Positions 1-13,779 of a stretch of DNA of 13,779 nt are shown one piece after another. The number at the start of each line of letters is the position of its first letter. Position 1 is the stretch's first letter. Under the pieces are notes generated by a model. The model searched no databases, was not told the DNA's origin, and saw nothing but the letters and a program-made list of their open reading frames with translations. The DNA is from a virus (lineage: Duplodnaviria > Heunggongvirae > Uroviricota > Caudoviricetes), in IMG/VR virus record IMGVR_UViG_2534682222_000007, positions 1-13,779 of that record. The stretch is one strand, 5' to 3'. The position numbers and the translations under genes are program-made.

Positions 1-1169
1 ACGCGACCCAGGATCAGGCCGTAACTGATGCCGTTGCGCAGCGTCTTCAGCGCGCGGCGTTGCAGACGGTCGATGCCGTTCTGCTCGTAGTACAGCGGGT
101 TAACAGTGGTGTTTGACCCGTTGATGATTTCGTTGGCCAGATCCAGCTCAAGGTTGATTGCAGTCCATGCTACTGAGTACCAGTAGTTGAACGGATTGCC
201 GTCCAGCATGTGGCCTGCCACCAGCATTTTGTTGCTCAGCCCACCTTCCGCGGCGGTACCGACGTAGTTGATGCTGTTATCCTGGAGCTGCTTTAGGAGC
301 GTGCCATTACCTTCGACCGGATACTCTGTAACCCCGTAACCAAATCGGTACGCCATCGGTGGCACCATGTTTGACGATCCAGGGTCGTTTGCCAGCGAGG
401 ACTGGAACGGGAACGCCATGGAAAACTCGCCTGCTGGGATGTTTGTTGACTCCACTCCCGCAAACACAGATTTGTTTTTGGTGGCGACCCACGCCGGGTA
501 GGTGGCGATCGTGGTGGTGACAAAGAAATACACCAGTGACGCCGGGCTGGTATACAGGCCAGTCAGGGTTTTAAACGTCGTCTCACCGTCCCACTCGCGC
601 GGCACCAGATACGAGAAGAATTTCTGGTAGGTGTTACCCAGAGAAATGTCTTCATCGATGAAGTCAGCCAGTGCAGCCACAGCAGCAGCGACAGACACGT
701 CGCCCAGCTCCAGCACGTAGACCGCGCGGGTAGTTCCCTGAGCCCAGAACGTGGTGTTCATCTCGATGATTTCGTTTGCCGCTACGGTTTTCACCGTACC
801 CATAACTGTTGCCGTTCCTGGGTCTGTAGCCAACGGATAAGTGAAGGCGGTAGAAGTGGTCACAGTGGCGGTTACGGCGCGGTTATAAGCTGCTGGAGTA
901 ACGCCAGAGACAACCAGCGGGATAGTGTTGCCAACGTTCCAGCCATGCGCTGCCGAGAGGGTCACCGTGACCACGCCGGTTGCCCAGGTGATAGTTGAAA
1001 TAGTTTTAGCCGGTGAGGTGATATCCTTCAGATCGTCTTTCGTCGTCAGGAGCTGGTACTCACCTGCAGCCAGGGTTGTTCCGCCCATGGAGATCATCGC
1101 GCCGGATTTGAGCAGCTGAGAGGGCTTCGGTGGATTGGTCACCGAGACGTTAATGTTAACAATTGCCAT
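1..1169 (-). CDS. Phage virion structural protein, partial (ATG at 1167-1169, C-terminus runs past window position 1); Ig-like Ala/Thr/Gly-rich domain near the N-terminus
   Basis: Manual translation of the minus strand from the ATG at 1167-1169 (MAIVNINVSVTNPPKPSQLL...) stays open to position 1 (about 389 codons). GGAG sits about 10 nt upstream. The gene is not in the supplied ORF track because it has no stop inside the window. Residues about 56-128 resemble the C-terminal domain of the 4554..5414 protein. Function (tail or neck) is not resolved. Confidence 0.5.
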   Translation of the reverse strand, partial: MAIVNINVSVTNPPKPSQLLKSGAMISMGGTTLAAGEYQLLTTKDDLKDITSPAKTISTITWATGVVTVTLSAAHGWNVGNTIPLVVSGVTPAAYNRAVTATVTTSTAFTYPLATDPGTATVMGTVKTVAANEIIEMNTTFWAQGTTRAVYVLELGDVSVAAAVAALADFIDEDISLGNTYQKFFSYLVPREWDGETTFKTLTGLYTSPASLVYFFVTTTIATYPAWVATKNKSVFAGVESTNIPAGEFSMAFPFQSSLANDPGSSNMVPPMAYRFGYGVTEYPVEGNGTLLKQLQDNSINYVGTAAEGGLSNKMLVAGHMLDGNPFNYWYSVAWTAINLELDLANEIINGSNTTVNPLYYEQNGIDRLQRRALKTLRNGISYGLILGR

Positions 1170-1173
1170 TTAT

Positions 1174-2115
1174 TTATTTCTCCGGGTAAATGGACGGAAT
1201 CGCTGACGTGATCAGCCTGCGCGCGACATTCCGCATGCGCTGCTGGTAATAGTTGACTTTGAACTTGATGGTTTTTCTCATGGCGATGATGTTCAGCTCG
1301 TTCTGCGTGACGCGCTCGTCCTGAACGACCGGGATATTCATCACGCCCATTTCCGCGTCATCGCCGAGCGTGTACTGCTGTACGTACCTCAGGAAATCTT
1401 CAACTCCGGCATTGCGCAGGCCAGTAATGGAGATCGTCACATCCTCGGAAACCAGCTGATACTGGTTCTGCTGCTCATCAAGGTAAAAGCTCCCGGCAAT
1501 CGGCGCGGTGTTGCTGCACTTCACCGTTGCATACGGCGGAGACAGGTTCTGCGTCGACAGCATGGCCGGGAACATAGGCATGTACTGACTCAGCGTCAGC
1601 CATACCGGCAATGAACTCGAAACCACCACATCAGCCAGATCGATGTCATCTGCAGAGTTGATGATCTGCGATCGCATGTAGGGGAATATTGCCTCACCTG
1701 TGTAGTGGTAGAGGTTGGCCGGTTCGTTCAACCCGGTGCGCCGGGAGAAGGAAAACTGAAGGCCAAAGAACTCGCCGATATACAGGACATCAGATCCGAT
1801 ATCGTTGAACGGGTCGATATCCGCCTGCGCGGTAAAAGTTACGACGTTCCGGTCGTAGAGTTGTTCATCGCCCTGTATGGTCTCGGTCGTCAGGTGCAGA
1901 TAACCTTTGACATCGACCGTATCTGGCTCGCTGCTCGGGTCGTCCGACAGAACAGACGCTTTCACCCAGAAGACGAAACCATCAAGCGGGAGAACCTTGC
2001 GGATATACTTCGTGAACGTGACCACCTGAAAGCGGCTCAGGTCATCAAGACCCTGCGTCAGCGTGGCGTTAAGCTCGGTTTTTGCAGTTTGCTGCAACTC
2101 ATCCAGGGAAGGCAT
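1174..2115 (-). CDS. Hypothetical phage virion-associated protein (313 aa)
   Basis: Long minus-strand ORF with an ATG start at 2113-2115, overlapping the upstream gene by 16 nt and tightly packed in the structural operon. No motif recognised by eye. Confidence 0.5.
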   Translation of the reverse strand: MPSLDELQQTAKTELNATLTQGLDDLSRFQVVTFTKYIRKVLPLDGFVFWVKASVLSDDPSSEPDTVDVKGYLHLTTETIQGDEQLYDRNVVTFTAQADIDPFNDIGSDVLYIGEFFGLQFSFSRRTGLNEPANLYHYTGEAIFPYMRSQIINSADDIDLADVVVSSSLPVWLTLSQYMPMFPAMLSTQNLSPPYATVKCSNTAPIAGSFYLDEQQNQYQLVSEDVTISITGLRNAGVEDFLRYVQQYTLGDDAEMGVMNIPVVQDERVTQNELNIIAMRKTIKFKVNYYQQRMRNVARRLITSAIPSIYPEK

Positions 2116-2533
2116 TTAGCACCCCGCTCACCCAGGCGCGCATAGCGGCCTGATAAGTTCCGGTATCGATGAATGACGGGCGCGGTGGCCCCTTTTTGTT
2201 CTTGAATCGCCGGGAGATGCCGTCCAGCGCGCGGCGCGTAGGCACACCAGGTAATCCGTTCATTTCGGTGTTGTCGAGGAAGGCGACAAACAGGTCATGG
2301 ATCCGTGACATTGACTCTGCCAGAGGGTCCCTTAACGGCGGCGCGCCAGCCAGCATATTTTCAAGATTTGCGGCGAGGTCTTTACTCATCAGGTCGGCGA
2401 TGTCGTTTCCGTACCTGTCAAAAAAGGTCTGCATAATCTGGTATTTTTCTTCCAGATATTCAGCAACATCCCCTGTCGTGGTGTTCTCATCTTCGTAGGG
2501 AAGGTCGATAACACCAAGATGAAAGGTGATCAT
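2099..2533 (-). CDS. Hypothetical phage protein (144 aa), possibly head-tail joining or virion morphogenesis
   Basis: ORF 2099..2545 re-set to the ATG at 2531-2533 (MITFHLGV...), which forms an ATGA overlap with the stop of the upstream gene. Its position after the capsid gene is the only basis for the functional guess. Confidence 0.45.
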   Translation of the reverse strand: MITFHLGVIDLPYEDENTTTGDVAEYLEEKYQIMQTFFDRYGNDIADLMSKDLAANLENMLAGAPPLRDPLAESMSRIHDLFVAFLDNTEMNGLPGVPTRRALDGISRRFKNKKGPPRPSFIDTGTYQAAMRAWVSGVLNAFPG

Positions 2534-2958
2534 GACAGCCCCCACAAACTACCGAACTGCTGGGCAATCATCAGATAGCGGCGTCCCCAGGGGTCCTGCA
2601 ACATTTGCAGATCGGCCAGAGACAAATCTTTGAAGAAGTCAGGCACCAGACGCTGCGCGCTGGTTGAGTTATCCCCGGCCCCCGTTATCACGCCAGCCTT
2701 GAAATTGTTAAGGCCATACTCTTTCCTGAACTCGGCGAATACCGATTCCGTGCCATAGTTGACCAGGAATGACGCGCCCAGGTTGTACACGGCAACGGTG
2801 TACAGATTCGGCGTGACGCACGCGATATCAGGGTTTACCCACTCAACCGCGCCGCCATACGCCAGGGTGAAAGACGGCGAGTCGTCGGGAACCTGCGCGG
2901 CGGTAACGCCCATGTCAGTTCGAACGAATTCGATGAATCCCGACAGGCTCGTTGTCAT
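2530..2958 (-). CDS. Hypothetical phage protein (142 aa), possible head-tail connector or head completion protein
   Basis: Minus-strand ORF with an ATG at 2956-2958 in ATGA overlap with the upstream stop. Translational coupling within the morphogenesis operon. Confidence 0.45.
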   Translation of the reverse strand: MTTSLSGFIEFVRTDMGVTAAQVPDDSPSFTLAYGGAVEWVNPDIACVTPNLYTVAVYNLGASFLVNYGTESVFAEFRKEYGLNNFKAGVITGAGDNSTSAQRLVPDFFKDLSLADLQMLQDPWGRRYLMIAQQFGSLWGLS

Positions 2959-3437
2959 TTTTTCTTGCTCCCGGATTTTTCAGTCACGATTGTTTCGTTA
3001 ACCGTTGGGGTGTCTTCGCTGTCTTCGCGGCCTTTCGCCTGCTCCGCGCTGACTTCCATTTCGCCGGAATAGCCGGTACCGCTTTCGCGCAGAGAACTAT
3101 CCAGAGCCGCTACGGATGCCTGGCGACGGCCGTGGGCGCCACGGGTCAGGTGAATATCGTTATCGCGGATTGCTTTTTCGATTACCGGCGCTGATACAGG
3201 CTTGTTTAGGCTGTAGCACAGGCCGACAAACGCCTGGCTCTGGTCGATTTTTGTCGAGTCAACCAGACCATAAACCTGATGGTGCTGCACCACCGCTTCA
3301 ATCTCTTCAGTTGTGCCATCCAGTACCATCATCTGGTCGCCGTGGTTAATCGGGATCTGAATAAGGCGGCCGGTCTCCAGCTTGCGATAGGCGAAAATCT
3401 GGCGCTGCTTGGTGGTGTTAGCGATATAGAGTTTCAT
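2955..3437 (-). CDS. Hypothetical phage protein (160 aa) with an acidic/Lys-rich, probably disordered C-terminal tail
   Basis: ATG at 3435-3437 with GAGGG about 7 nt upstream, immediately after the terminator that follows the capsid gene. The C-terminus (...EDSEDTPTVNETIVTEKSGSKKK) is low-complexity. Confidence 0.5.
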   Translation of the reverse strand: MKLYIANTTKQRQIFAYRKLETGRLIQIPINHGDQMMVLDGTTEEIEAVVQHHQVYGLVDSTKIDQSQAFVGLCYSLNKPVSAPVIEKAIRDNDIHLTRGAHGRRQASVAALDSSLRESGTGYSGEMEVSAEQAKGREDSEDTPTVNETIVTEKSGSKKK

Positions 3438-3450
3438 TGGTTACCCTCGT

Positions 3451-3484
3451 AAAAAAGCCCCTGCTGAGTTTCCCCGGCAGAGGC
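3451..3484 (-). terminator. Candidate intrinsic terminator after the major capsid gene (likely partial)
   Basis: On the minus-strand RNA, an 8-bp GC-rich stem (plus coordinates 3457-3464 pairing with 3477-3484, one G-U pair), a 12-nt loop, then UUUUUU (plus A-run 3451-3456). It lies between the capsid stop (3506) and the next start (3437). Confidence 0.5.
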
Positions 3485-3505
3485 TTAACCACTTCAAAGA
3501 ATGAA

Positions 3506-4537
3506 TCAGGCGCTGTACGCCATGGACAGGATGGTGATTGCTTCCGGACGAACTGCCCAGCCTGCGGTAGAACGCATTTCGGACAGAACATCGATGGCAC
3601 CACCAGCGATCGGCGTCGGAATCTCACGCGGCGCGGCCATGTCGGTAAACATCAGCGCGTTCGCGGCAAGAGACGGGGTCAGCTTGGCGAATTCGTTGGT
3701 GTTCACAGTCGAGTTGACCATTGGCACTTCGACCTCAGGGATGGTGATTACCACCGCATCGGTACCGCCAGCGCCAGCGCCGATCAATGTATCGTCATAC
3801 ACCCAGTCAACCTGGACGTTTGCGCCTTTCAGCACTTCTTTCACCGTGCCGCCGACGGTGTCAGTACCACCACCAGGACGCTGGTAAGAAGTCAGCTGAA
3901 CGATCTGCTGAATCTCCATGGCACCGAGGACGCGCTGCGGCCCCAGGATAACAACACGCTGCTGGCGACCCAGCTGCATGGTGCGGGTCAGTGCTGCCTG
4001 CACGTGGCCCAGAAGATATACCGCCATCTGCCCGTGGTCATAGGTTAGCACGGTGGTGTTGCTGTTGCTGTCAGGAGGCAGGGACTCGGTAGTCGCGCCA
4101 GCGGTGTTCAGCAGGCCTTCACCACCAGCAGGGTTCATGCCATACAGCAGAGCAGAGCGCAGTTGCTGGAAGATGCCCTGACGCATACCCAGACGCTGGG
4201 CTTCCGGCAGTGCAAAGTTCCAGTTACCGGCAGCGGCCATGTCATGGTGATCGTAGATACCACGGCAGCGGAACAGGTAGGTTGGGGTTGAAATCATCTT
4301 CGCATCCAGCGCCACGCTCGGCAGTTGGTTACCGTTACCGGACTGACTGGAAGTGGTCTGGGTGCGAATATCCAGGCGGCGCATGTAGACGTACTGATCT
4401 CCTACGCCGAGACGGACTTGCGGGTTACCGCTGGCGATGGTTTCAAACGCACCTGACGCCTGCTGGTAACCAATGATCATCTCCGGCGCGATGTACGACG
4501 GATTGACGATGGTGTAGCTGGGGGTAATTGCAGCCAT
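3506..4537 (-). CDS. Putative major capsid protein (343 aa)
   Basis: ATG at 4535-4537 with GGAG upstream. Size and position (after scaffold and decoration-like genes, followed by a terminator) fit a major capsid protein. Family assignment is from memory of similar phage clusters, not a search. Confidence 0.6.
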   Translation of the reverse strand: MAAITPSYTIVNPSYIAPEMIIGYQQASGAFETIASGNPQVRLGVGDQYVYMRRLDIRTQTTSSQSGNGNQLPSVALDAKMISTPTYLFRCRGIYDHHDMAAAGNWNFALPEAQRLGMRQGIFQQLRSALLYGMNPAGGEGLLNTAGATTESLPPDSNSNTTVLTYDHGQMAVYLLGHVQAALTRTMQLGRQQRVVILGPQRVLGAMEIQQIVQLTSYQRPGGGTDTVGGTVKEVLKGANVQVDWVYDDTLIGAGAGGTDAVVITIPEVEVPMVNSTVNTNEFAKLTPSLAANALMFTDMAAPREIPTPIAGGAIDVLSEMRSTAGWAVRPEAITILSMAYSA

Positions 4538-4553
4538 TTAATTCAGCTCCCGA

Positions 4554-5414
4554 TTAAAGTAAGACCAGCGCGCAGCTGTCGGTGTTATTCCAGGTCAGGA
4601 AACCAGTCGCGCTGTCATAGCTGACAGTCTTGGAGTTGCCTGATTCGATGGCGAGCACTTTTACCGGCAGCGTGATGTCGGAAAGCGTAACTGCGCCGAT
4701 GGTGCCCTGCGTGGTTGCAGCGCCGCCTGGTGCAGTTGCCGGTGCATAGGTGAAGGTCGTTGTGTTCACGACTGAAAGCACGACTACTGTGCCGTTGTAC
4801 GCCGCAGGAGCGACGCCGCTGATTTTCACGTACTGACCAGCAGTCAGGCCATGAGCTGAAGCGGTTACCGCTGTCGCCACACCATTGGCATAGGTCACTG
4901 CTGTTGTCGCAATATCAGAACCGGCGAAACCGGCCGCCGCCGCAGTGGTGATCTGGTTGTTCACGAAGTCCCAGGCCAGAGGCGTTTTCACTGACGCGCC
5001 GGAGGTGCCAAGCGCAACAACCTGCGCAGAAGCTTTCAACGGAACGCGCATGTTGGAGCCCAGGCGGTAGTACGAAACGCTCATGCCTGATGCGTACAGC
5101 GGAACCGGTGACTGCGGAGTGGTCAGGCCGTTGTGAGCCTGATTGAAGACAGTGAAGCCTTCCAGCTCGGCAACAGACACAGCGCGACGGATGTAAGAAC
5201 CGCGAGGGCTTGAACTGGTGCCAGGCAGAAGCTCAGCAACTGGCAGACCGCCCCAGAGAGGTTTGTTTTCCGTTGCCGCCACAGTACCCGCCGCCAGGTT
5301 AAAGCGGTTAGCCGGGTCATCAAGCGCCACGCCCTGAATATAACCGTCGGACTGCACACCGAAGGAGCCAAGCGCATTCGTGGTTGCCATCGGGTTAAGA
5401 GATAAGTTAGCCAT
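4554..5414 (-). CDS. Putative head decoration / accessory structural protein (286 aa) with a C-terminal Ig-like domain
   Basis: ATG at 5412-5414, sited between the scaffold and capsid genes (the position lambda D occupies). The C-terminal region (...VTASAHGLTAGQYVKISGVAPAAYNGTVVV...TFTYAPATAPGG...) is Ala/Thr/Gly-rich and paralogous to the N-terminal domain of the 1..1169 protein. Confidence 0.45.
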   Translation of the reverse strand: MANLSLNPMATTNALGSFGVQSDGYIQGVALDDPANRFNLAAGTVAATENKPLWGGLPVAELLPGTSSSPRGSYIRRAVSVAELEGFTVFNQAHNGLTTPQSPVPLYASGMSVSYYRLGSNMRVPLKASAQVVALGTSGASVKTPLAWDFVNNQITTAAAAGFAGSDIATTAVTYANGVATAVTASAHGLTAGQYVKISGVAPAAYNGTVVVLSVVNTTTFTYAPATAPGGAATTQGTIGAVTLSDITLPVKVLAIESGNSKTVSYDSATGFLTWNNTDSCALVLL

Positions 5415-5429
5415 GCTTGAGAGCTCCCG

Positions 5430-7052
<1,623 letters not shown>

Positions 7053-7061
7053 TTAATGCTC

Positions 7062-7892
7062 CTATGCTGATTTCATAGACGCCATGAACTTCTGCCCCTT
7101 CTGGGTCAGCATGTGTTCAGGAATACTCCGGAGGTTGTACAGATAGGTTACGTAACACCGGCAAAAAACCTCTTCTCCGGGCTGCGTAATTTCATCGAGA
7201 TAACCGGAAGGCCCCACCTTCACGTAACCGTTTTTTTGTGCCCAGTTACCGCGGATGAGATAGACCACCTTATCGCGCTCTTTGTGATCTTCCCGGTAGT
7301 CATAACCTGCCTGCCGCCAGTGACTATGCCACTCTGCAGCTATGGCGTTATTACTGGCAGCTATGATGTTGTCGATGTTTGCAATGAGTTTATGGTTCTG
7401 ATCAATCATCACCCGACGCGCTTCAAAATCAATTTGCAAGGCGCTTTTCTGAATGTGATCACAGTTGTAATTAACCCCGCTTTTGGATGATGGAGATAGT
7501 CCACCTCCAACGTAATCCTGCACAGGGATGCTGGTAGCCCACCCGCTAAATCTCTGGACTGTTTTGTTTATCGCGCCTGTACGATTTAACTTAATTAAGT
7601 CGGCGCTAGCCAAGATGCGTCTATCAAGCTCGCTTCTTAACTTAGGCTCCATGTAATTCAGAGTAAATCGAGACAAGCCTGGATGCCGATCCAGCGCCTT
7701 AGCCCTGTTTATCTGCATTTCATAGGTTGATCGAAGCTTATCTGACACCCTTGATATGTAGTCATCATGGGTTTCGCTTTCCGCCGCCTGGCGAATAATT
7801 CCCTGCCATCGCTCCAGCTCCTCTCTCGAGGTATAGCCATTGCGCAAGAAGAATTTAACCGCCTCCCTTACTGTTCTGGAAAATTTGCTCAT
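7062..7892 (-). CDS. Putative head morphogenesis / minor head protein (Mu F / SPP1 gp7-like, 276 aa)
   Basis: ATG at 7890-7892 in ATGA overlap with the portal stop. Position directly after the portal gene and a C-terminal CRC motif (EEVFCRCYVTY) that I recall as conserved in Mu F-like proteins. Confidence 0.55.
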   Translation of the reverse strand: MSKFSRTVREAVKFFLRNGYTSREELERWQGIIRQAAESETHDDYISRVSDKLRSTYEMQINRAKALDRHPGLSRFTLNYMEPKLRSELDRRILASADLIKLNRTGAINKTVQRFSGWATSIPVQDYVGGGLSPSSKSGVNYNCDHIQKSALQIDFEARRVMIDQNHKLIANIDNIIAASNNAIAAEWHSHWRQAGYDYREDHKERDKVVYLIRGNWAQKNGYVKVGPSGYLDEITQPGEEVFCRCYVTYLYNLRSIPEHMLTQKGQKFMASMKSA

Positions 7893-9307
7893 AGCATCAT
7901 CCCGCCGCCAGGCTCTTCAGCTTTCGGCGGCTCAGGCGGTGGGTTTTCCTTCAGAGAGTCGTAATCGAGGTTAAGCCGCTGAGGGAATAGGTTCTCGTTG
8001 GCGTTGGCGTTTTCACACGCCCACTCGATCAGCGTCGCGCGGTTTTCCGGGTCAGCAGTGAGTTGCGGCAGCACCACTTCCAGCATACTGACGATCGCCT
8101 TAAAGCGCGTTTCGTCGACCTTCACCTTCTCGCTTTCCGGCTCTTTCAGGGGGGATGGCCAGCGATATTCGAAGTTGTTTATCCAGCTCGCGAAATACAC
8201 GCTGTAGGTGTTTTTCAGCTCCGGGAAGTCAGCACGCAGCGACTGGAAGAATTCAATGCTCCAGGCGCGGTACTGGCACACGCGGATGAAGAACGCATAA
8301 AGCGGGTCCAGCCACTCGCGGATGTTGTCGATGTACACCGCTACAGCGCGTGCATCTTCAGTGCCTTCACCGAAGCCCTGGGCGAACGTCTCGGAGTTGA
8401 GGATGATTGCCGGCATGTCAGCGGCGGCGGCCACGTTCTCGAGAATGTGCTTACGCGCAGAGTCGAGAGGTTTTTCCAGGTTGCTCAGGTCGATTGACTC
8501 GATACCATCCTGCGGTCCAATCTGCAGGACCTCACCAGTTTTACCTCGCTTCAGCAGCATGCGCTTGAATCCACCTAGCGCCTGCATAACTTTGTTAACA
8601 ACCGCGCCAGCGCCTGCAATTTTGGTAATTAGCAGTCCGCCTTTAACCGCAACCATGTCATCAGTGCGCATGGTCTGAATGAAGGATTTCAGCGGGAAAA
8701 GCGCACGCTGATACACACTGCGTCCGGTGAACCCGAACGCCGCAGGGTTGTACGCGAGATAAATAGGATCTTCGTTCTGCGCGACTATGCATCGCGATTT
8801 GTGGTATGGCTTGCCAGCCACACGAATGCCTTCGACTTTCTGGAAGTCATGGGCGTTTGGGTCCTGGTTCAGCACGATACTGCCCGCGGTATTCAACGGA
8901 TCGAGAATGTTAAAGCTGACGTTGTGCTTGTACAGCGTGCGGTAGTCCAGCGATTCATTCGGCTCCTGGTTATCCACCAGCATTGCTATCGCTGATACGC
9001 CGTAAATACGGGCTATGCGCGCGGCGTTGGCGATGTGCTGGTTCGCACCCATCTCTTTCCATTCGCGCTCGAACGCGTCGCGCAGGCGCTGCTCAAGGCC
9101 GTACGACTGGGCAACATGCACGGTGCGCGGCTCATTCATCGCCATTTTAATCGGGCGATCCACCATCTTTCCGCCCAGGGGGTGGAAGAGATAAATCGTC
9201 TTGCAGGCCTGATACCCAGCCGAGGAACCAGGCTGAATATCGTCGCTGTCCAGCAATGCCATCAACTCTGGAGAGCAGCTGCCGATTTCGAAATCGTCTT
9301 CGTTCAT
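7889..9307 (-). CDS. Putative portal protein (472 aa)
   Basis: ATG at 9305-9307, immediately downstream of the large terminase gene, with size typical of a portal and an acidic C-terminus. Assignment is by synteny; no diagnostic motif was verified. Confidence 0.6.
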   Translation of the reverse strand: MNEDDFEIGSCSPELMALLDSDDIQPGSSAGYQACKTIYLFHPLGGKMVDRPIKMAMNEPRTVHVAQSYGLEQRLRDAFEREWKEMGANQHIANAARIARIYGVSAIAMLVDNQEPNESLDYRTLYKHNVSFNILDPLNTAGSIVLNQDPNAHDFQKVEGIRVAGKPYHKSRCIVAQNEDPIYLAYNPAAFGFTGRSVYQRALFPLKSFIQTMRTDDMVAVKGGLLITKIAGAGAVVNKVMQALGGFKRMLLKRGKTGEVLQIGPQDGIESIDLSNLEKPLDSARKHILENVAAAADMPAIILNSETFAQGFGEGTEDARAVAVYIDNIREWLDPLYAFFIRVCQYRAWSIEFFQSLRADFPELKNTYSVYFASWINNFEYRWPSPLKEPESEKVKVDETRFKAIVSMLEVVLPQLTADPENRATLIEWACENANANENLFPQRLNLDYDSLKENPPPEPPKAEEPGGGMML

Positions 9308-9318
9308 TGGTTCTCTCG

Positions 9319-10650
9319 TCAGATTGCGTCGCCGCTGCCGAAGGCGATGATCAGCCCGTAGGTGTAATCATCGAGCAAATCGTCGGCGCGCTTGTGCGCG
9401 TTCTTATCGGCAAGGTGGAATCGTGAAACCTGCTTATGCAGATGGTTTGCTGTTTCGCCCTTGAAGACGGCCGTCTTCTCGTAGGCGTATCGGGATATTT
9501 TCGCCAGCCCGCGGTAGTGATAACCGGAGGCCATAATGGCGCGTTCGTCCTTCCCTTTGCTGGTCAGGGCGGATTCAATTTTGTTGACCGGCCATCCCAG
9601 GCTTTCACCTTTCTGCAGGAGGATGCTGCCCATGCTGGCGTCTTCGATGAAAACGCCGAGGCTGCCATTTACAGCGACGCACTGGCCGGATAGCTCATTC
9701 AGCCGGGTGAAAACAGACGGAATCCACTCTTCCAGCAGCGCGCCGTCGATCTGCACTACATCCCAGTCGAGTATGGTCAGGCGCTGAATGCCGGGCCGGG
9801 TGTCGACGGCGTAGTAAACTACCGCCGTGCCGTCGTGCTCAGTACCGCCCTTAACGGCGGTATCCATGACAGCGAAAACGGCCTGGCACATCTCAGGGTA
9901 ATCGACTGGCTGATCCTGGTTTTCACCCTCGAACCATTTGCGGACGTCGAACAGTGACGCAGCGGACCAGTCGACGAACTCGGCCAGGAACTCCTGCCGG
10001 AAAACGCGAGGGTCGTTGTTCTGTCGCTCTTTCTCCAGTTCCTCAGGAGGAACGAAGGGGTTGGATGACGTCGGAGCATGATGCTCATGGAAGCCGAGGT
10101 CTTTGTTATGGCAGATGGCATAGAAGAAGTTTTCTTCGTCCACACCGTCAGGCGTTGAGAATACGTAGGCCCGGCCTTTTGTCGTCAGTAGCGTCGGCTT
10201 AATCGACTTCGGCCAGATTTCCTTCAGCATTTCAGGCGACTTGGTAAACGCCGCCTCATCGATCAGGATAATTTCGTACTCACGACCACGACCGGCCAGT
10301 TTGTTGTCGTTGGTGACCCAGAAGTCAATCTTCCCGCCGTTCTTCAGCAGCAGGCGCTTTTCCTGCCGGCTGAAGCTCTTTTTCAGCGGCAGCAGGATTT
10401 CTTCCAACTTGTCGTAGATCTCCTGGTACTGGCGATACTCGGCAGTGAAGATACCGACCCGACCGCCCAGCTCGATATCCATGCCCGGGCGCCGGAACTG
10501 CGACGTTGCGTAGGTCACCGCAGCGCTCGACAGCATGAAGGTTTTCCCCCAGCGTCGACCACAGCGAACCGCATTCAACTGGTGATCCCAGGAGTCAGAC
10601 CAGACCGTTAACTGCCCGTTGTGTAGCGTGGGTAGGTAAATGTCGGCCAT
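9319..10650 (-). CDS. terL: Terminase large subunit (443 aa)
   Basis: Walker A-like motif VRCGRRWGKT near the N-terminus, Walker B-like YEIILIDEAAF, and C-terminal acidic motifs (AVMDTAV, VFIEDAS, DDLLDDYTYG) consistent with an RNase H-like nuclease domain. Start ATG at 10648-10650, 3 nt after the small-subunit stop. Confidence 0.85.
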   Translation of the reverse strand: MADIYLPTLHNGQLTVWSDSWDHQLNAVRCGRRWGKTFMLSSAAVTYATSQFRRPGMDIELGGRVGIFTAEYRQYQEIYDKLEEILLPLKKSFSRQEKRLLLKNGGKIDFWVTNDNKLAGRGREYEIILIDEAAFTKSPEMLKEIWPKSIKPTLLTTKGRAYVFSTPDGVDEENFFYAICHNKDLGFHEHHAPTSSNPFVPPEELEKERQNNDPRVFRQEFLAEFVDWSAASLFDVRKWFEGENQDQPVDYPEMCQAVFAVMDTAVKGGTEHDGTAVVYYAVDTRPGIQRLTILDWDVVQIDGALLEEWIPSVFTRLNELSGQCVAVNGSLGVFIEDASMGSILLQKGESLGWPVNKIESALTSKGKDERAIMASGYHYRGLAKISRYAYEKTAVFKGETANHLHKQVSRFHLADKNAHKRADDLLDDYTYGLIIAFGSGDAI

Positions 10651-10653
10651 GAT

Positions 10654-11370
10654 TTATCTTCCCGGGATTGGCAGCGAGTTATGCACGACGATCGCGTTAT
10701 CCTTGTCACCGTCTTTCAGCGCATCGATTTCGAGCTCAACCTTTTCGGTCGCGGCTTCGCGGTAAGCGGCATCAACGCGCTGTTTGATAATCGCCGCCTT
10801 GGTGTACTCCAGCGACTCAATGCGGGCCGTGTTACGGTGCATGGCTTTTTGCGCAGATGAAATTAGCTCGTGAAGATTATTGGCGGTATCGCCATCAGCT
10901 ATTTCAAGCTCAGTCTGCCAGCGGCCAATATTTTCAGCAGCGGTAAGGTTCGCCGCACGCAACCAGAAAAGCTCATCATCAAGAGTGAGCGCCTGAGCAT
11001 CCTCGGTAATGGCATCAGATAGAAGCATTCGGCGTCCATAGCCACCATGCTTCAATGCGTTCTGATTTCCGGGTCTGGAATTATAATGAGCGCGTTTCGT
11101 TTCTGGTGAGTTTGATGGTTTTGCGACTTCGCAGTTATCCACTAAGCCCGCTGGTGGCTTACTCTTTGCCACTTTCTCCTTTTGCGAATTCGCATTCTTT
11201 TTCGCAGCTTCTTTCTGCGATTTCGCACCATACGACGTTACTTTGATGTAGCGTTTCGCAGATGCGTAATTCAGTCCCTGAGCCTGGCACCAGTCTTTGG
11301 GGGAAATACCTGTTTTGGCATGCTCGGCGAGGAACTGGTCTTGCAGTGCTCCCCAGTCCGGTTTTGCCAT
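10654..11370 (-). CDS. terS: Putative terminase small subunit (238 aa)
   Basis: Immediately upstream of and translationally coupled to the large terminase gene. The N-terminal segment looks HTH-like (ISPKDWCQAQGLNYASAKRYIKV). GAGGT ribosome-binding site 8 nt upstream of the ATG at 11368-11370. Confidence 0.55.
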   Translation of the reverse strand: MAKPDWGALQDQFLAEHAKTGISPKDWCQAQGLNYASAKRYIKVTSYGAKSQKEAAKKNANSQKEKVAKSKPPAGLVDNCEVAKPSNSPETKRAHYNSRPGNQNALKHGGYGRRMLLSDAITEDAQALTLDDELFWLRAANLTAAENIGRWQTELEIADGDTANNLHELISSAQKAMHRNTARIESLEYTKAAIIKQRVDAAYREAATEKVELEIDALKDGDKDNAIVVHNSLPIPGR

Positions 11371-11432
11371 AATACTTACCTCACGTTGACATTATCGAAG
11401 CCCCTCAGTGAAGGGCTCCTGTAATGCCGCGA

Positions 11433-12091: not shown

Positions 12092-12116
12092 AAAAAAGCC
12101 CGACCGAAGTCAGGCT
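12092..12116 (-). terminator. Intrinsic terminator downstream of Rz/Rz1
   Basis: Minus-strand RNA: 8-bp stem (one G-U pair) closed by a UUCG tetraloop, followed by UUUUUU (plus A-run 12092-12097); 20 nt after the Rz stop at 12136. Confidence 0.6.
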
Positions 12117-12135
12117 CTGTTATTTGGGTGACGAA

Positions 12136-12609
12136 TCACTTAAGACACTGCTCTTTGATGTAGTCCTGCATGCCGCGAATCATTTTGTCAGCGGTTGCGA
12201 TTCCGTCCCGGTGATCGAAATAATTCCGTCGAGCGTCTGGAGTAAGTTCGGGGGCTCCTGCATCATCCACGCCGGTGGAGGAGGTGGCTTTTGGCACTCC
12301 AGGGCAGGTTGCAGCGATGCGCAGCCGTTTAGCGCCAGAATCGACATCACGACGCAAATCGTTAATGGTCTTTTTAGCATCGGACAATTCCTTCGTGTAT
12401 TTGGCATCCAGTGCAGCGACATCGCGCTGACGGGTCTGCATGTCTTTAATGGTGGCGGTCGCCAGGAGGAGTTTCTCAGTGGCCTTATCGCGCTGGTCTC
12501 TGTAAGTGATGGCGTTGTCGCGGTAGTGGTTCACGAAGAAAGCCAGTGCGCCGATTAACGCCAGCACCAGCAACTGCAGCCAGTAACGCTTAACCAGTGC
12601 GCTAATCAT
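12136..12609 (-). CDS. Rz: Rz-type i-spanin (157 aa)
   Basis: N-terminal transmembrane segment followed by [12 protein letters not shown]...[15 protein letters not shown], closely resembling lambda Rz as I recall it. ATGA overlap with the endolysin stop. Confidence 0.85.
12180..12380 (-). CDS. Rz1: Rz1-type o-spanin lipoprotein (66 aa), embedded in Rz in the +1 frame
   Basis: ORF entirely inside Rz. Start re-set to the ATG at 12378-12380 (AAGGA about 9 nt upstream): [24 protein letters not shown]... with a signal peptide, lipobox-like LNGC, and the PPPPPAW motif characteristic of lambda Rz1. Confidence 0.8.
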
Positions 12610-13055
12610 GACAGGAACAGAGCTCGCTCTGCCTTGCGGCGATTCGTGAGCCCCGGCATCACCTTTCCGCCTGATTTATTCCAGCGCAGAAATTCATCTG
12701 CCGCGCCTTTTATATCGCCAGCATTCAGCTTTTTCAGCAGTGTAGATGTGGAAAGAGCACGCGACCCAACGTTGTAAGCGAACGACACCAGTGCGTCGAA
12801 CTGGCCTTGTGTCAGCTTCACCCTGACAACTTTCAGCACGTCATTCTCATAACCAACAAGCCCTGTTTTCAGAAGCCTGTCAGCGGTTTGCTGGTCGATA
12901 GTCATACCGCGCTTTACTGGCTTTCCGTCAACCGGATGGGTCCAGCCATAGCCGATGGTCCACGGCGCATCTCCCGTTCCGGGGTCGGGGTAAGCAGTCA
13001 GCCGACAACCTTCAAATTTTTTTATCAGAGCAATTCCGTCAGGACTGGTTTGCAT
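12606..13055 (-). CDS. R: Endolysin, T4/P22-type lysozyme (GH24), soluble (149 aa)
   Basis: Catalytic E-D-T arrangement in [26 protein letters not shown] and a C-terminus ([11 protein letters not shown]) like P22 gp19. The track ORF begins at a TTG (13082); the ATG at 13053-13055 with GGGAG 6-7 nt upstream is preferred, giving a 17-nt overlap with S. Confidence 0.85.
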
Positions 13056-13362
13056 CGTCAACTCCCGCCTTTTTTGCTGCAAGTTTTTTAATCAGATTGC
13101 CGATCGAATCGGTGCCGATGTATCCAATAAAGACGCTGGCTATGTAGGCGAGGTTGCTGCTCAGGCCGATAAAGTCCAGAAGGTCACGAACGAACCAGGC
13201 AATCATCGCGCACATCAGCGCATCAATTAGCGTTTTTGTTACCGCGCCGCCGTTATAGCGACCACGCAGATACGCCATGATAAAAGCCAGCATTGCACCA
13301 ATACCCTGCTCCTTGGCGGCAAGTAGCGCAGCGATGAAATCTTGTTTGTATGGCATTTTCAT
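13039..13362 (-). CDS. S: Class I holin, lambda S-like (107 aa) with a dual-start Met1-Lys2-Met3 motif
   Basis: [39 protein letters not shown]... is near-identical in pattern to lambda S as I recall it. GGAGG ribosome-binding site upstream. The track ORF (147 aa) is an N-terminal over-extension. Confidence 0.9.
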
Positions 13363-13372
13363 AGGCCTCACC

Positions 13373-13386
13373 TCCGATTTTTCGGA
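13373..13386 (-). promoter_or_regulatory. sdi-like stem-loop overlapping the S ribosome-binding site
   Basis: Minus-strand RNA 5'-UCCGA-AAAA-UCGGA-3' (plus 13373-13377 pairing with 13382-13386); the 3' arm overlaps the GGAGG Shine-Dalgarno just before the tandem start codons. Confidence 0.35.
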
Positions 13387-13470
13387 TGGCGCTGTGTGTG
13401 TTTGTAGGGGAAAGGCCGTCAGACTCTGATTGCTACATGGCATCTGAAAATGATATCTGCGGCCTGCAAT

Positions 13471-13494
13471 AAAAAAGCCCACGGCGCGGTGGGC
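13471..13494 (-). terminator. Intrinsic terminator within the late leader, about 110 nt upstream of S
   Basis: Minus-strand RNA: perfect 6-bp GC-rich stem GCCCAC/GUGGGC (plus 13477-13482 with 13489-13494), 6-nt loop, then UUUUUU (plus A-run 13471-13476). Confidence 0.5.
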
Positions 13495-13749
13495 AATAGA
13501 GGGTAGTGCGTTGAGCTTTTGCTCTTATGGTCCTGGTAGGTATTTGGTGTGTGGTGACCGGTGCTGTGTTTTCCGGCATGTAAATGAACTACCCGTCGTC
13601 GCCATGGTGAGCCTTTACCTCACCATCTAGCTGATAAGTTAGCGCATCAGCCTGCGCATTCACCACAACGATAATTGCACTGCGCCTGTTTCGGTTAGCG
13701 TAACGGGATTAACCGGTCACCCCAATGCAATTATCTGTTGTGCAGATAC

Positions 13750-13778
13750 AAAAAAGCCCCGAGCTATTAACTCAGGGC
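13750..13778 (-). terminator. Intrinsic terminator, candidate tR' analogue (end of a 6S-like late leader RNA)
   Basis: Minus-strand RNA: 8-bp stem (plus 13756-13763 with 13771-13778, one G-U), 7-nt loop, then UUUUUU (plus 13750-13755). It sits about 390 nt upstream of S, matching the tR'-to-S spacing in lambda; the flanking sequence resembles lambda tR' from memory. Confidence 0.5.
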
Positions 13779-13779
13779 C

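Follow-up and report, generated by a model that had tools for sequence, protein, structure and literature searches.

The holin gene of this prophage probably has a lambda-like translation start region, in which two closely spaced start codons are both used, an sdi-like hairpin over the first Shine-Dalgarno (SD) motif sets the ratio of the two products, and that ratio sets the time of lysis. The gene lies in the window, by which we mean the whole stretch of viral DNA that was analysed (13,779 nucleotides, IMG/VR record IMGVR_UViG_2534682222_000007), all of whose genes are on the minus strand. Positions with a sign are given relative to the first AUG of the holin gene, and all others are those of the window. 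The same interpretation had been reached in the original prediction, and homology and comparative evidence now support it.

On the model that we favour, initiation at the first start codon, AUG1, would yield a 107-aa antiholin with an N-terminal Met-Lys, and initiation at the second, AUG3, would yield a 105-aa holin in the same reading frame. The first SD motif, SD1 (GGAGGUGA), is spaced for AUG1 and would be locked in a 9-bp hairpin, so that ribosomes would reach AUG1 only with the hairpin open. A weaker GAGG motif at the 3' edge of the hairpin would direct ribosomes to AUG3. The stability of the hairpin would in this way set the antiholin:holin ratio and hence the moment at which the cell lyses.

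The holin gene and its lysis cassette

The holin gene (13362..13039, minus strand) has 107 codons (MKMPYKQDF...) and belongs to the lambda S family of class I holins. It matches Pfam PF05106 (Phage_holin_3_1) with an E-value of 8.5e-30 and 103.5 bits against a cutoff of 23.8, and 87 of its 107 residues (81%) are identical to those of lambda S, with one 1-residue gap near the C-terminus. An identical protein is named 'phage holin, lambda family' in RefSeq, and a hydropathy scan reveals hydrophobic stretches at about residues 20-34, 40-67 and 61-85. The endolysin gene (13055..12606, minus strand; Pfam Phage_lysozyme, E-value 6.4e-48) overlaps the 3' end of the holin gene by 17 nt at its start and is followed by an Rz-type i-spanin gene (12609..12136, minus strand; Pfam Phage_lysis, E-value 6.6e-40), which has an Rz1 o-spanin ORF embedded in another frame (within 12180..12422, minus strand; Pfam Rz1, E-value 8.5e-16). 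Judged by its gene content, this is a lambdoid late-operon lysis cassette in the order S-R-Rz/Rz1. A Rha-family gene comes after Rz/Rz1, and then the terminase and portal genes. Escherichia coli prophages that are 99.7% identical over the holin leader carry NinB, NinE, RusA and an antitermination (Q-type) gene, and in E. coli KCJ3K291 the antitermination gene ends ~105 nt upstream of the point that matches the window end.

Elsewhere in the late region, strong hairpins at 12096..12118 (-14.3 kcal/mol) and 11397..11419 (-14.6 kcal/mol), both on the minus strand and just after the Rz and Rha-family genes, respectively, may be terminators or transcript-end structures. In the RefSeq annotation of the E. 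coli prophage regions that match window positions 1..11400 with 93-94% identity, the genes include one for an anti-CBASS Acb1-family protein and one for a NUDIX hydrolase.

Predicted fold of the holin start region

The minus-strand RNA of the start region reads ...ACACACAG CGCC A UCCGA AAAA UCGGA GGUG AGGCCU AUG AAA AUG CCA. A 5-bp stem-loop (UCCGA-AAAA-UCGGA) overlapping the GGAGG motif had been claimed for this region. The stem (13386..13382 paired with 13377..13373), the AAAA loop (13381..13378) and the overlap of GGAGG (13375..13371) with the 3' arm are all present, and the stem proves to be larger, a bulged structure of 9 bp. The additional four pairs form an outer stem, in which CGCC (13391..13388, -29..-26) pairs with GGUG (13372..13369, -10..-7), stacked on the inner stem across a bulged A; the C at 13391 is one base beyond the interval of the original prediction, 13350..13390. 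The complete putative hairpin, CGCC-A-UCCGA-AAAA-UCGGA-GGUG (13391..13369, minus strand; -29..-7 relative to AUG1), appears in both the MFE and the centroid structure, is supported by covariation, and has a predicted stability of -10.7 kcal/mol on its own (5-bp core, -4.7 kcal/mol).

The 5-bp stem as first described is within chance, because the minus strand of the window holds 22 perfect 5-bp stems with a 4-nt loop against 13.4 expected. The extended 9-bp hairpin, as modelled by folding, is beyond chance level. For the 61-nt start region the predicted folding energy is -14.5 kcal/mol, whereas dinucleotide shuffles give -7.6 +/- 2.2 kcal/mol (z -3.2; 1/200), and ~0.5% of 23-nt windows on the minus strand match the stability of the hairpin. 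Pair probabilities in the hairpin are 0.6-1.0 when it is folded in contexts of 100-350 nt, and the segment from -15 to -5 is the least accessible of the 15 gene starts in the window, with a mean probability of being unpaired of 0.11 versus 0.35-0.77. No Rfam family was found for the start region, whether the whole window was searched at gathering thresholds or the leader at E <= 10, and a tRNA/tmRNA search found none. The reading of the hairpin as a terminator or promoter was rejected, as a consensus scan gave no match there and no U-tract follows the hairpin.

Directly 5' of the hairpin is a conserved CA-rich tract, ACAAACACACACAG (13392..13405, minus strand), which is unpaired in every fold and may be a ribosome standby site. 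Most relatives, SEN34 and phiEt88 among them, keep the motif CACACAG beside the stem, even where the sequence farther upstream is unrelated.

Three other pairings came up in the folds. A longer-range helix between GGCCU (13417..13413) and AGGCC (13368..13364), present in the centroid fold of 151 nt, was rejected as a conserved feature because relatives retain the upstream GCCU where its 3' partner is replaced by GAGAGAU. A small helix between GGC (-5..-3) and GCC (+9..+11), seen in short folds, has 3 bp and is context-dependent and unconserved. RNAalifold also pairs AUGCC (AUG3 plus CC, +7..+11; 13352..13356) with GG(U/C)AU (+58..+62; 13301..13305) in 18 of 18 aligned holin genes; this pairing is uninformative, as both sides are coding-fixed and the sole change is a G-U/G-C wobble.

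Two start codons and two Shine-Dalgarno motifs

The Met-Lys-Met start had been described as two starts three codons apart; AUG-AAA-AUG is present as described, and the spacing is in fact two codons (6 nt). AUG1 (13362..13360, minus strand) is the RefSeq-annotated start in E. coli relatives and would begin the 107-aa form, the predicted antiholin like S107. AUG3 (13356..13354, minus strand) is conserved in all dual-start relatives and would begin the 105-aa form, the predicted holin like S105. The intervening Lys2 codon, AAA (13359..13357, minus strand), encodes the positive charge by which the long form differs from the short one. In lambda, Lys2 and the charge of the N-terminus are described as acting in the antiholin S107, where Lys2 prevents the first transmembrane domain from entering the membrane (PMC6116005).

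SD1 (13375..13368, -13..-6, minus strand) is an 8-nt perfect complement to the 16S 3' end, and the 3' arm of the hairpin contains all of it except the last base. GGAGG is separated from AUG1 by 8 nt and from AUG3 by 14 nt, and the duplex of SD1 with GAUCACCUCCUUA at the 16S 3' end has a calculated energy of -15.4 kcal/mol (-9.8 kcal/mol for lambda). The candidate second motif, SD2, is a consensus-like GAGG on the 3' border of the hairpin (13369..13366, -7..-4, minus strand). Its distance to AUG1, only 3 nt, is too short for it to serve that start, and its spacing of 9 nt to AUG3 suggests that it serves Met3. An in-frame GUG at -9..-7 is unlikely as a start because GGAG abuts it without a spacer.

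Conservation among relatives

To place these features in a comparative frame, we took 80 IMG/VR loci whose holins are 83-100% identical to the window holin. Their start regions represent ~25 sequence variants, each of which folds to a hairpin with the SD as its 3' arm. The inner stems vary (UCCGA/UCGGA, UCCGU/ACGGA, CCGG/CCGG and CGC/GCG), the loops vary freely, and the outer stem has either CGCC or CACC, a change from a G-U to an A-U pair. A covariance model was used to align 33 distinct sequences. Of the cells in this alignment 88.1% are paired, whereas sliding the 3' partners by 1-3 columns leaves 39-49%; at four of the nine pairs (14 cells) both sides have changed, and all of 500 shuffles score below the observed value. 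These covariation statistics lean towards structure, because related sequences were aligned by a fit to that structure.

The N-terminus across the 80 loci is MKM in 50, MRM in 27 and MIM in one, with Lys or Arg at codon 2 in 77. Replacement of Lys by Arg requires at least two base changes, which suggests selection on the charge and agrees with the part that Lys2 plays in S107. The single Met-Ile-Met locus (L028:1001-1009), where AAA has become AUA and the charge at position 2 is lost, would be a natural 'no antiholin' variant if the dual-start model is right.

The SD-bearing hairpin is also found in other lineages with an M-K-M or M-K-K-M start, namely lambda, P22, HK97, phiEt88, Aeromonas pAEv1818, Pseudomonas TC7 and SEN34, and in diverged holins it lies at exactly the same place with respect to the start codons. 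In the single-start relatives APSE-2 and phiSG1, both of which were examined, the hairpin is absent. Relatives of the Sodalis phiSG1 holin (L123-L142) have a Met-Lys-Leu-Met start behind a CCCCAU/AUGGGG hairpin that carries the SD GGGGGUGG; with phiSG1 having a single start without the hairpin and L123-L142 having both, this is a further co-occurrence of dual start and hairpin. Among 25 M-[KR]-M start-region lineages, 11 have z < -1.64 against shuffles (median -1.41). A crude family-wide survey of SD accessibility placed 55 of 90 start regions below 0.3, compared with 42% of shuffled-upstream controls, which is no clear separation. The statement for the whole family is weaker than that for the group of the window, because pattern-based retrieval favoured MKM starts.

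The start module as a mosaic unit

The hairpin, the tandem SDs and AUG-AAA-AUG of Salmonella phage SEN34 are nearly identical to those of the window, and the holin that follows is 31.5% identical. A near-identical module in front of a divergent holin body places a mosaic junction immediately after Met3. At the same point, exactly after Met3, locus L030 (457-1010; also L031) has an inserted ORF for an HNH_3/AP2 endonuclease (166 aa, Pfam E-value 8.6e-15), which begins with the AUG-AAA-AUG of the module behind the same hairpin. After the endonuclease TAG, the holin body restarts from a UUG at the Met3 position with a new SD, GGGAG. With the endonuclease using the start of the module and the holin restarting at UUG, a homing-type insertion has taken over the dual-start region, and the holin that remains has a single start.

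Set against lambda, the design in the window has a perfect 8-nt SD within a bulged hairpin of -10.7 kcal/mol, a consensus-like SD2, a CA-rich flank that is conserved, and hardly any stem-loop downstream. We see a small but appreciable chance that the hairpin, the tandem SDs and Met-Lys-Met are a self-contained module that moves between holins and whose design could implement a different partition logic. Such a logic could be, for example, standby-site loading or a condition-dependent antiholin:holin ratio.

Other readings of the hairpin

The hairpin might instead be a general throttle on S synthesis that delays lysis, with one start used and Met-Lys-Met inherited without antiholin function, a reading that we consider unlikely. 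It would fit a start region that is the most occluded of the 15 in the window and a downstream stem-loop, an aid to partition in lambda, that is weak here; against this, both AUGs and the basic residue 2 are kept in 77 of 80 relatives, the Lys-to-Arg replacements included, and there are two SD motifs, each spaced for its own AUG. From lambda itself come arguments on both sides, as the total rate of holin translation itself sets lysis time there (10.1101/2025.05.14.654169), whereas the window protein is 81% identical to lambda S, for which two products have been demonstrated.

It is very improbable that the hairpin is a conditional switch, such as an RNA thermometer or growth-rate sensor, that varies the antiholin:holin ratio, a role that would be compatible with the dual-start reading. 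The SD does lie in the 3' arm of a modest hairpin with a bulge and a G-U pair, as in SD-sequestering thermometers, and the stability is near the range where melting could follow temperature, but the stems of the relatives run from about -6 to -12 kcal/mol without obvious pattern, Rfam gives no match, and the architecture is shared with thermometers only in general. The lambda sdi is not known to act as a conditional switch. Finally, a chance palindrome or some other signal (a terminator, a processing site or a plus-strand feature) has next to no probability: 5-bp stems are common, as the 22 on the minus strand of the window attest, but the 9-bp extension, the z of -3.2, the compensatory changes, the lack of a U-tract and of any terminator or promoter match at the hairpin in a consensus scan, and the fixed register across diverged holins all speak against it.

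A candidate structured RNA upstream of the holin

The late leader upstream of the holin gene contains a candidate structured non-coding RNA of ~200 nt (13743..13548, minus strand), which lies between two terminator-like hairpins (13779..13755 and 13494..13477, minus strand) and is more unusual than the holin start region. The 310-nt leader folds with a z of -3.8. Domain 1 of the element is a long stem whose arms read AACAGAUAAUUGCA/UGCAAUUAUCGUU in the window and AACAGGUAAGAGCA/UGCUCUUUCCGUU in the majority of relatives, so that a whole block has changed in a compensatory manner; its cap is a variable insert, within which L221, L233 and L230 have the tRNA T-arm-like GGTTCGAATCC. In domain 2, a closing stem of GUUGUGGUG/CACCACA encloses a hairpin that resembles helix 11 of 16S rRNA. 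No covariation was seen in domain 2 in a sample selected by exact pattern.

The helix-11 mimic (13638..13592, minus strand) has 33 of 40 bases identical to E. coli rrsH 243-282, with a local score of 45 against 19.9 +/- 2.1 for shuffles, and its match to the Rfam SSU models extends over the whole of helix 11 (33 bits, E-value 5e-8). Where it departs from 16S the changes compensate each other, with AUGGUGAG..CUCACCAU in the window for UAGGUGGG..CUCACCUA in 16S. By eye, the flanks bear a loose resemblance to 16S nucleotides ~108-120 and, with CCACAC, to helix 12. Ribosomal protein S17 would be one candidate for binding the mimic. For the ~200-nt element every Rfam family stays below its gathering score and no match to a named RNA was obtained, and we found no literature on the helix-11 mimic.

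An exact-pattern scan found the element in at least 25 IMG/VR viral contigs (L216-L240), and two internal segments of the RNA-like block are deleted together in L216, L221, L233, L231 and L237. In Escherichia phage ZCEC13, a Jedunavirus (L093:1501-1618), the block is 91% identical over ~118 nt. The copies in the virulent Jedunavirus phages have an unrelated genomic position, with baseplate genes on one side and tail-fibre genes on the other, and small 'hypothetical proteins' are annotated over them. For small RNAs of prophages, the Q-S interval is an established hotspot (10.64898/2026.05.13.724894).

Significance

The start region of the window is the lambda design in a close homologue, and the dual-start reading of it is correct but ordinary. 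Such genes already receive the label 'holin/anti-holin' from annotation pipelines (phage Louie; lambda imm21), and the understanding of holin regulation is unchanged. The analysis does identify how this prophage probably times lysis, and it makes two modest additions, the compensatory conservation of the stem and a distinct set of parameters. The hairpin over the Met1 SD appears to have been kept by compensatory evolution, with unrelated stem sequences, in a widespread group of enterobacterial prophages. For annotation, both products of the holin gene merit an entry, and the stem and SD variants offer a natural series for studies of lysis timing.

Comparison with lambda and other phages

In the lambda S start region, a GGGGG SD serves Met1 (antiholin S107), an atypical UAAG SD at -6..-3 serves Met3 (holin S105), an upstream stem-loop at -21..-7 controls access to GGGGG, and an intragenic stem-loop at +31..+47 is the fourth element; together the four give an antiholin:holin ratio of ~1:2 (10.1101/2025.05.14.654169, a preprint summarising classical work). 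We confirmed the lambda sequence and its fold, AUCCCC-UUAUU-GGGGGU-AAGAC-AUG-AAG-AUG. The likeness to the lambda S translation initiation region that had been proposed holds in layout and register, with a hairpin over the Met1 SD that ends at -7, then a second SD, then Met-Lys-Met. The two phages share the holin family, the Met-Lys-Met start, an SD-bearing 3' arm ending at -7 (-21..-7 in lambda, -29..-7 here) and a second SD at about -7..-3 spaced for Met3 (UAAG in lambda, GAGG here). They also share the overlap of the endolysin start with the holin 3' end (R over S) and the cassette S-R-Rz/Rz1 behind Q.

The two regions differ in their parameters. The stem sequences are unrelated, with 9 bp, a bulge and -10.7 kcal/mol here against 6 bp and -8.7 kcal/mol in lambda; SD1 here is a perfect 8-mer (-15.4 against -9.8 kcal/mol), and SD2 is the consensus-like GAGG rather than UAAG. 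The stronger SD1 offsets the more stable hairpin, and the antiholin:holin ratio is unpredictable from these energies. A search for the intragenic stem-loop at ~+31..+47 found only a weak counterpart, GC.GCG/UGC.GC with a U-C mismatch (13332..13316, +31..+47, minus strand), a mismatched 2+3-bp stem of -2.2 kcal/mol compared with -7.6 in lambda and -9.7 in P22, and its residual pairs fall on Ala codons. This weakness suggests that partition control may differ in detail from that of lambda. The N-terminal tail is MKMPYKQD here and MKMPEKHD in lambda, and the absence of Glu5 raises the net charge of both predicted forms by one positive unit. Extra positive N-terminal charge would be expected to slow triggering in lambda-type holins.

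Gene 13 of Salmonella phage P22 (13 and 13') is of the same holin family and has a dual start with basic residues (Met1-Lys-Lys-Met4), with both products in GenBank, and a CCUCAC/GUGAGG hairpin that holds the SD and is followed by UAAGAC. It differs from the window in starts that are three codons apart, another stem sequence and a strong intragenic stem-loop (-9.7 kcal/mol). The S21 pinholin gene of phage 21, part of a lambdoid lysis cassette, is likewise a holin/antiholin gene with two starts (S21-71 and S21-68), and its product, a class II holin with two transmembrane domains, is of a protein family different from lambda S. Closest to the window in its start region is SEN34 (L089:265-310), with CACC-A-UCCGA-ACUA-UCGGA-GGUG-AGGCUU-AUG-AAA-AUG and a covariance-model score of 46.3 bits, in front of a holin body that is only 31.5% identical.
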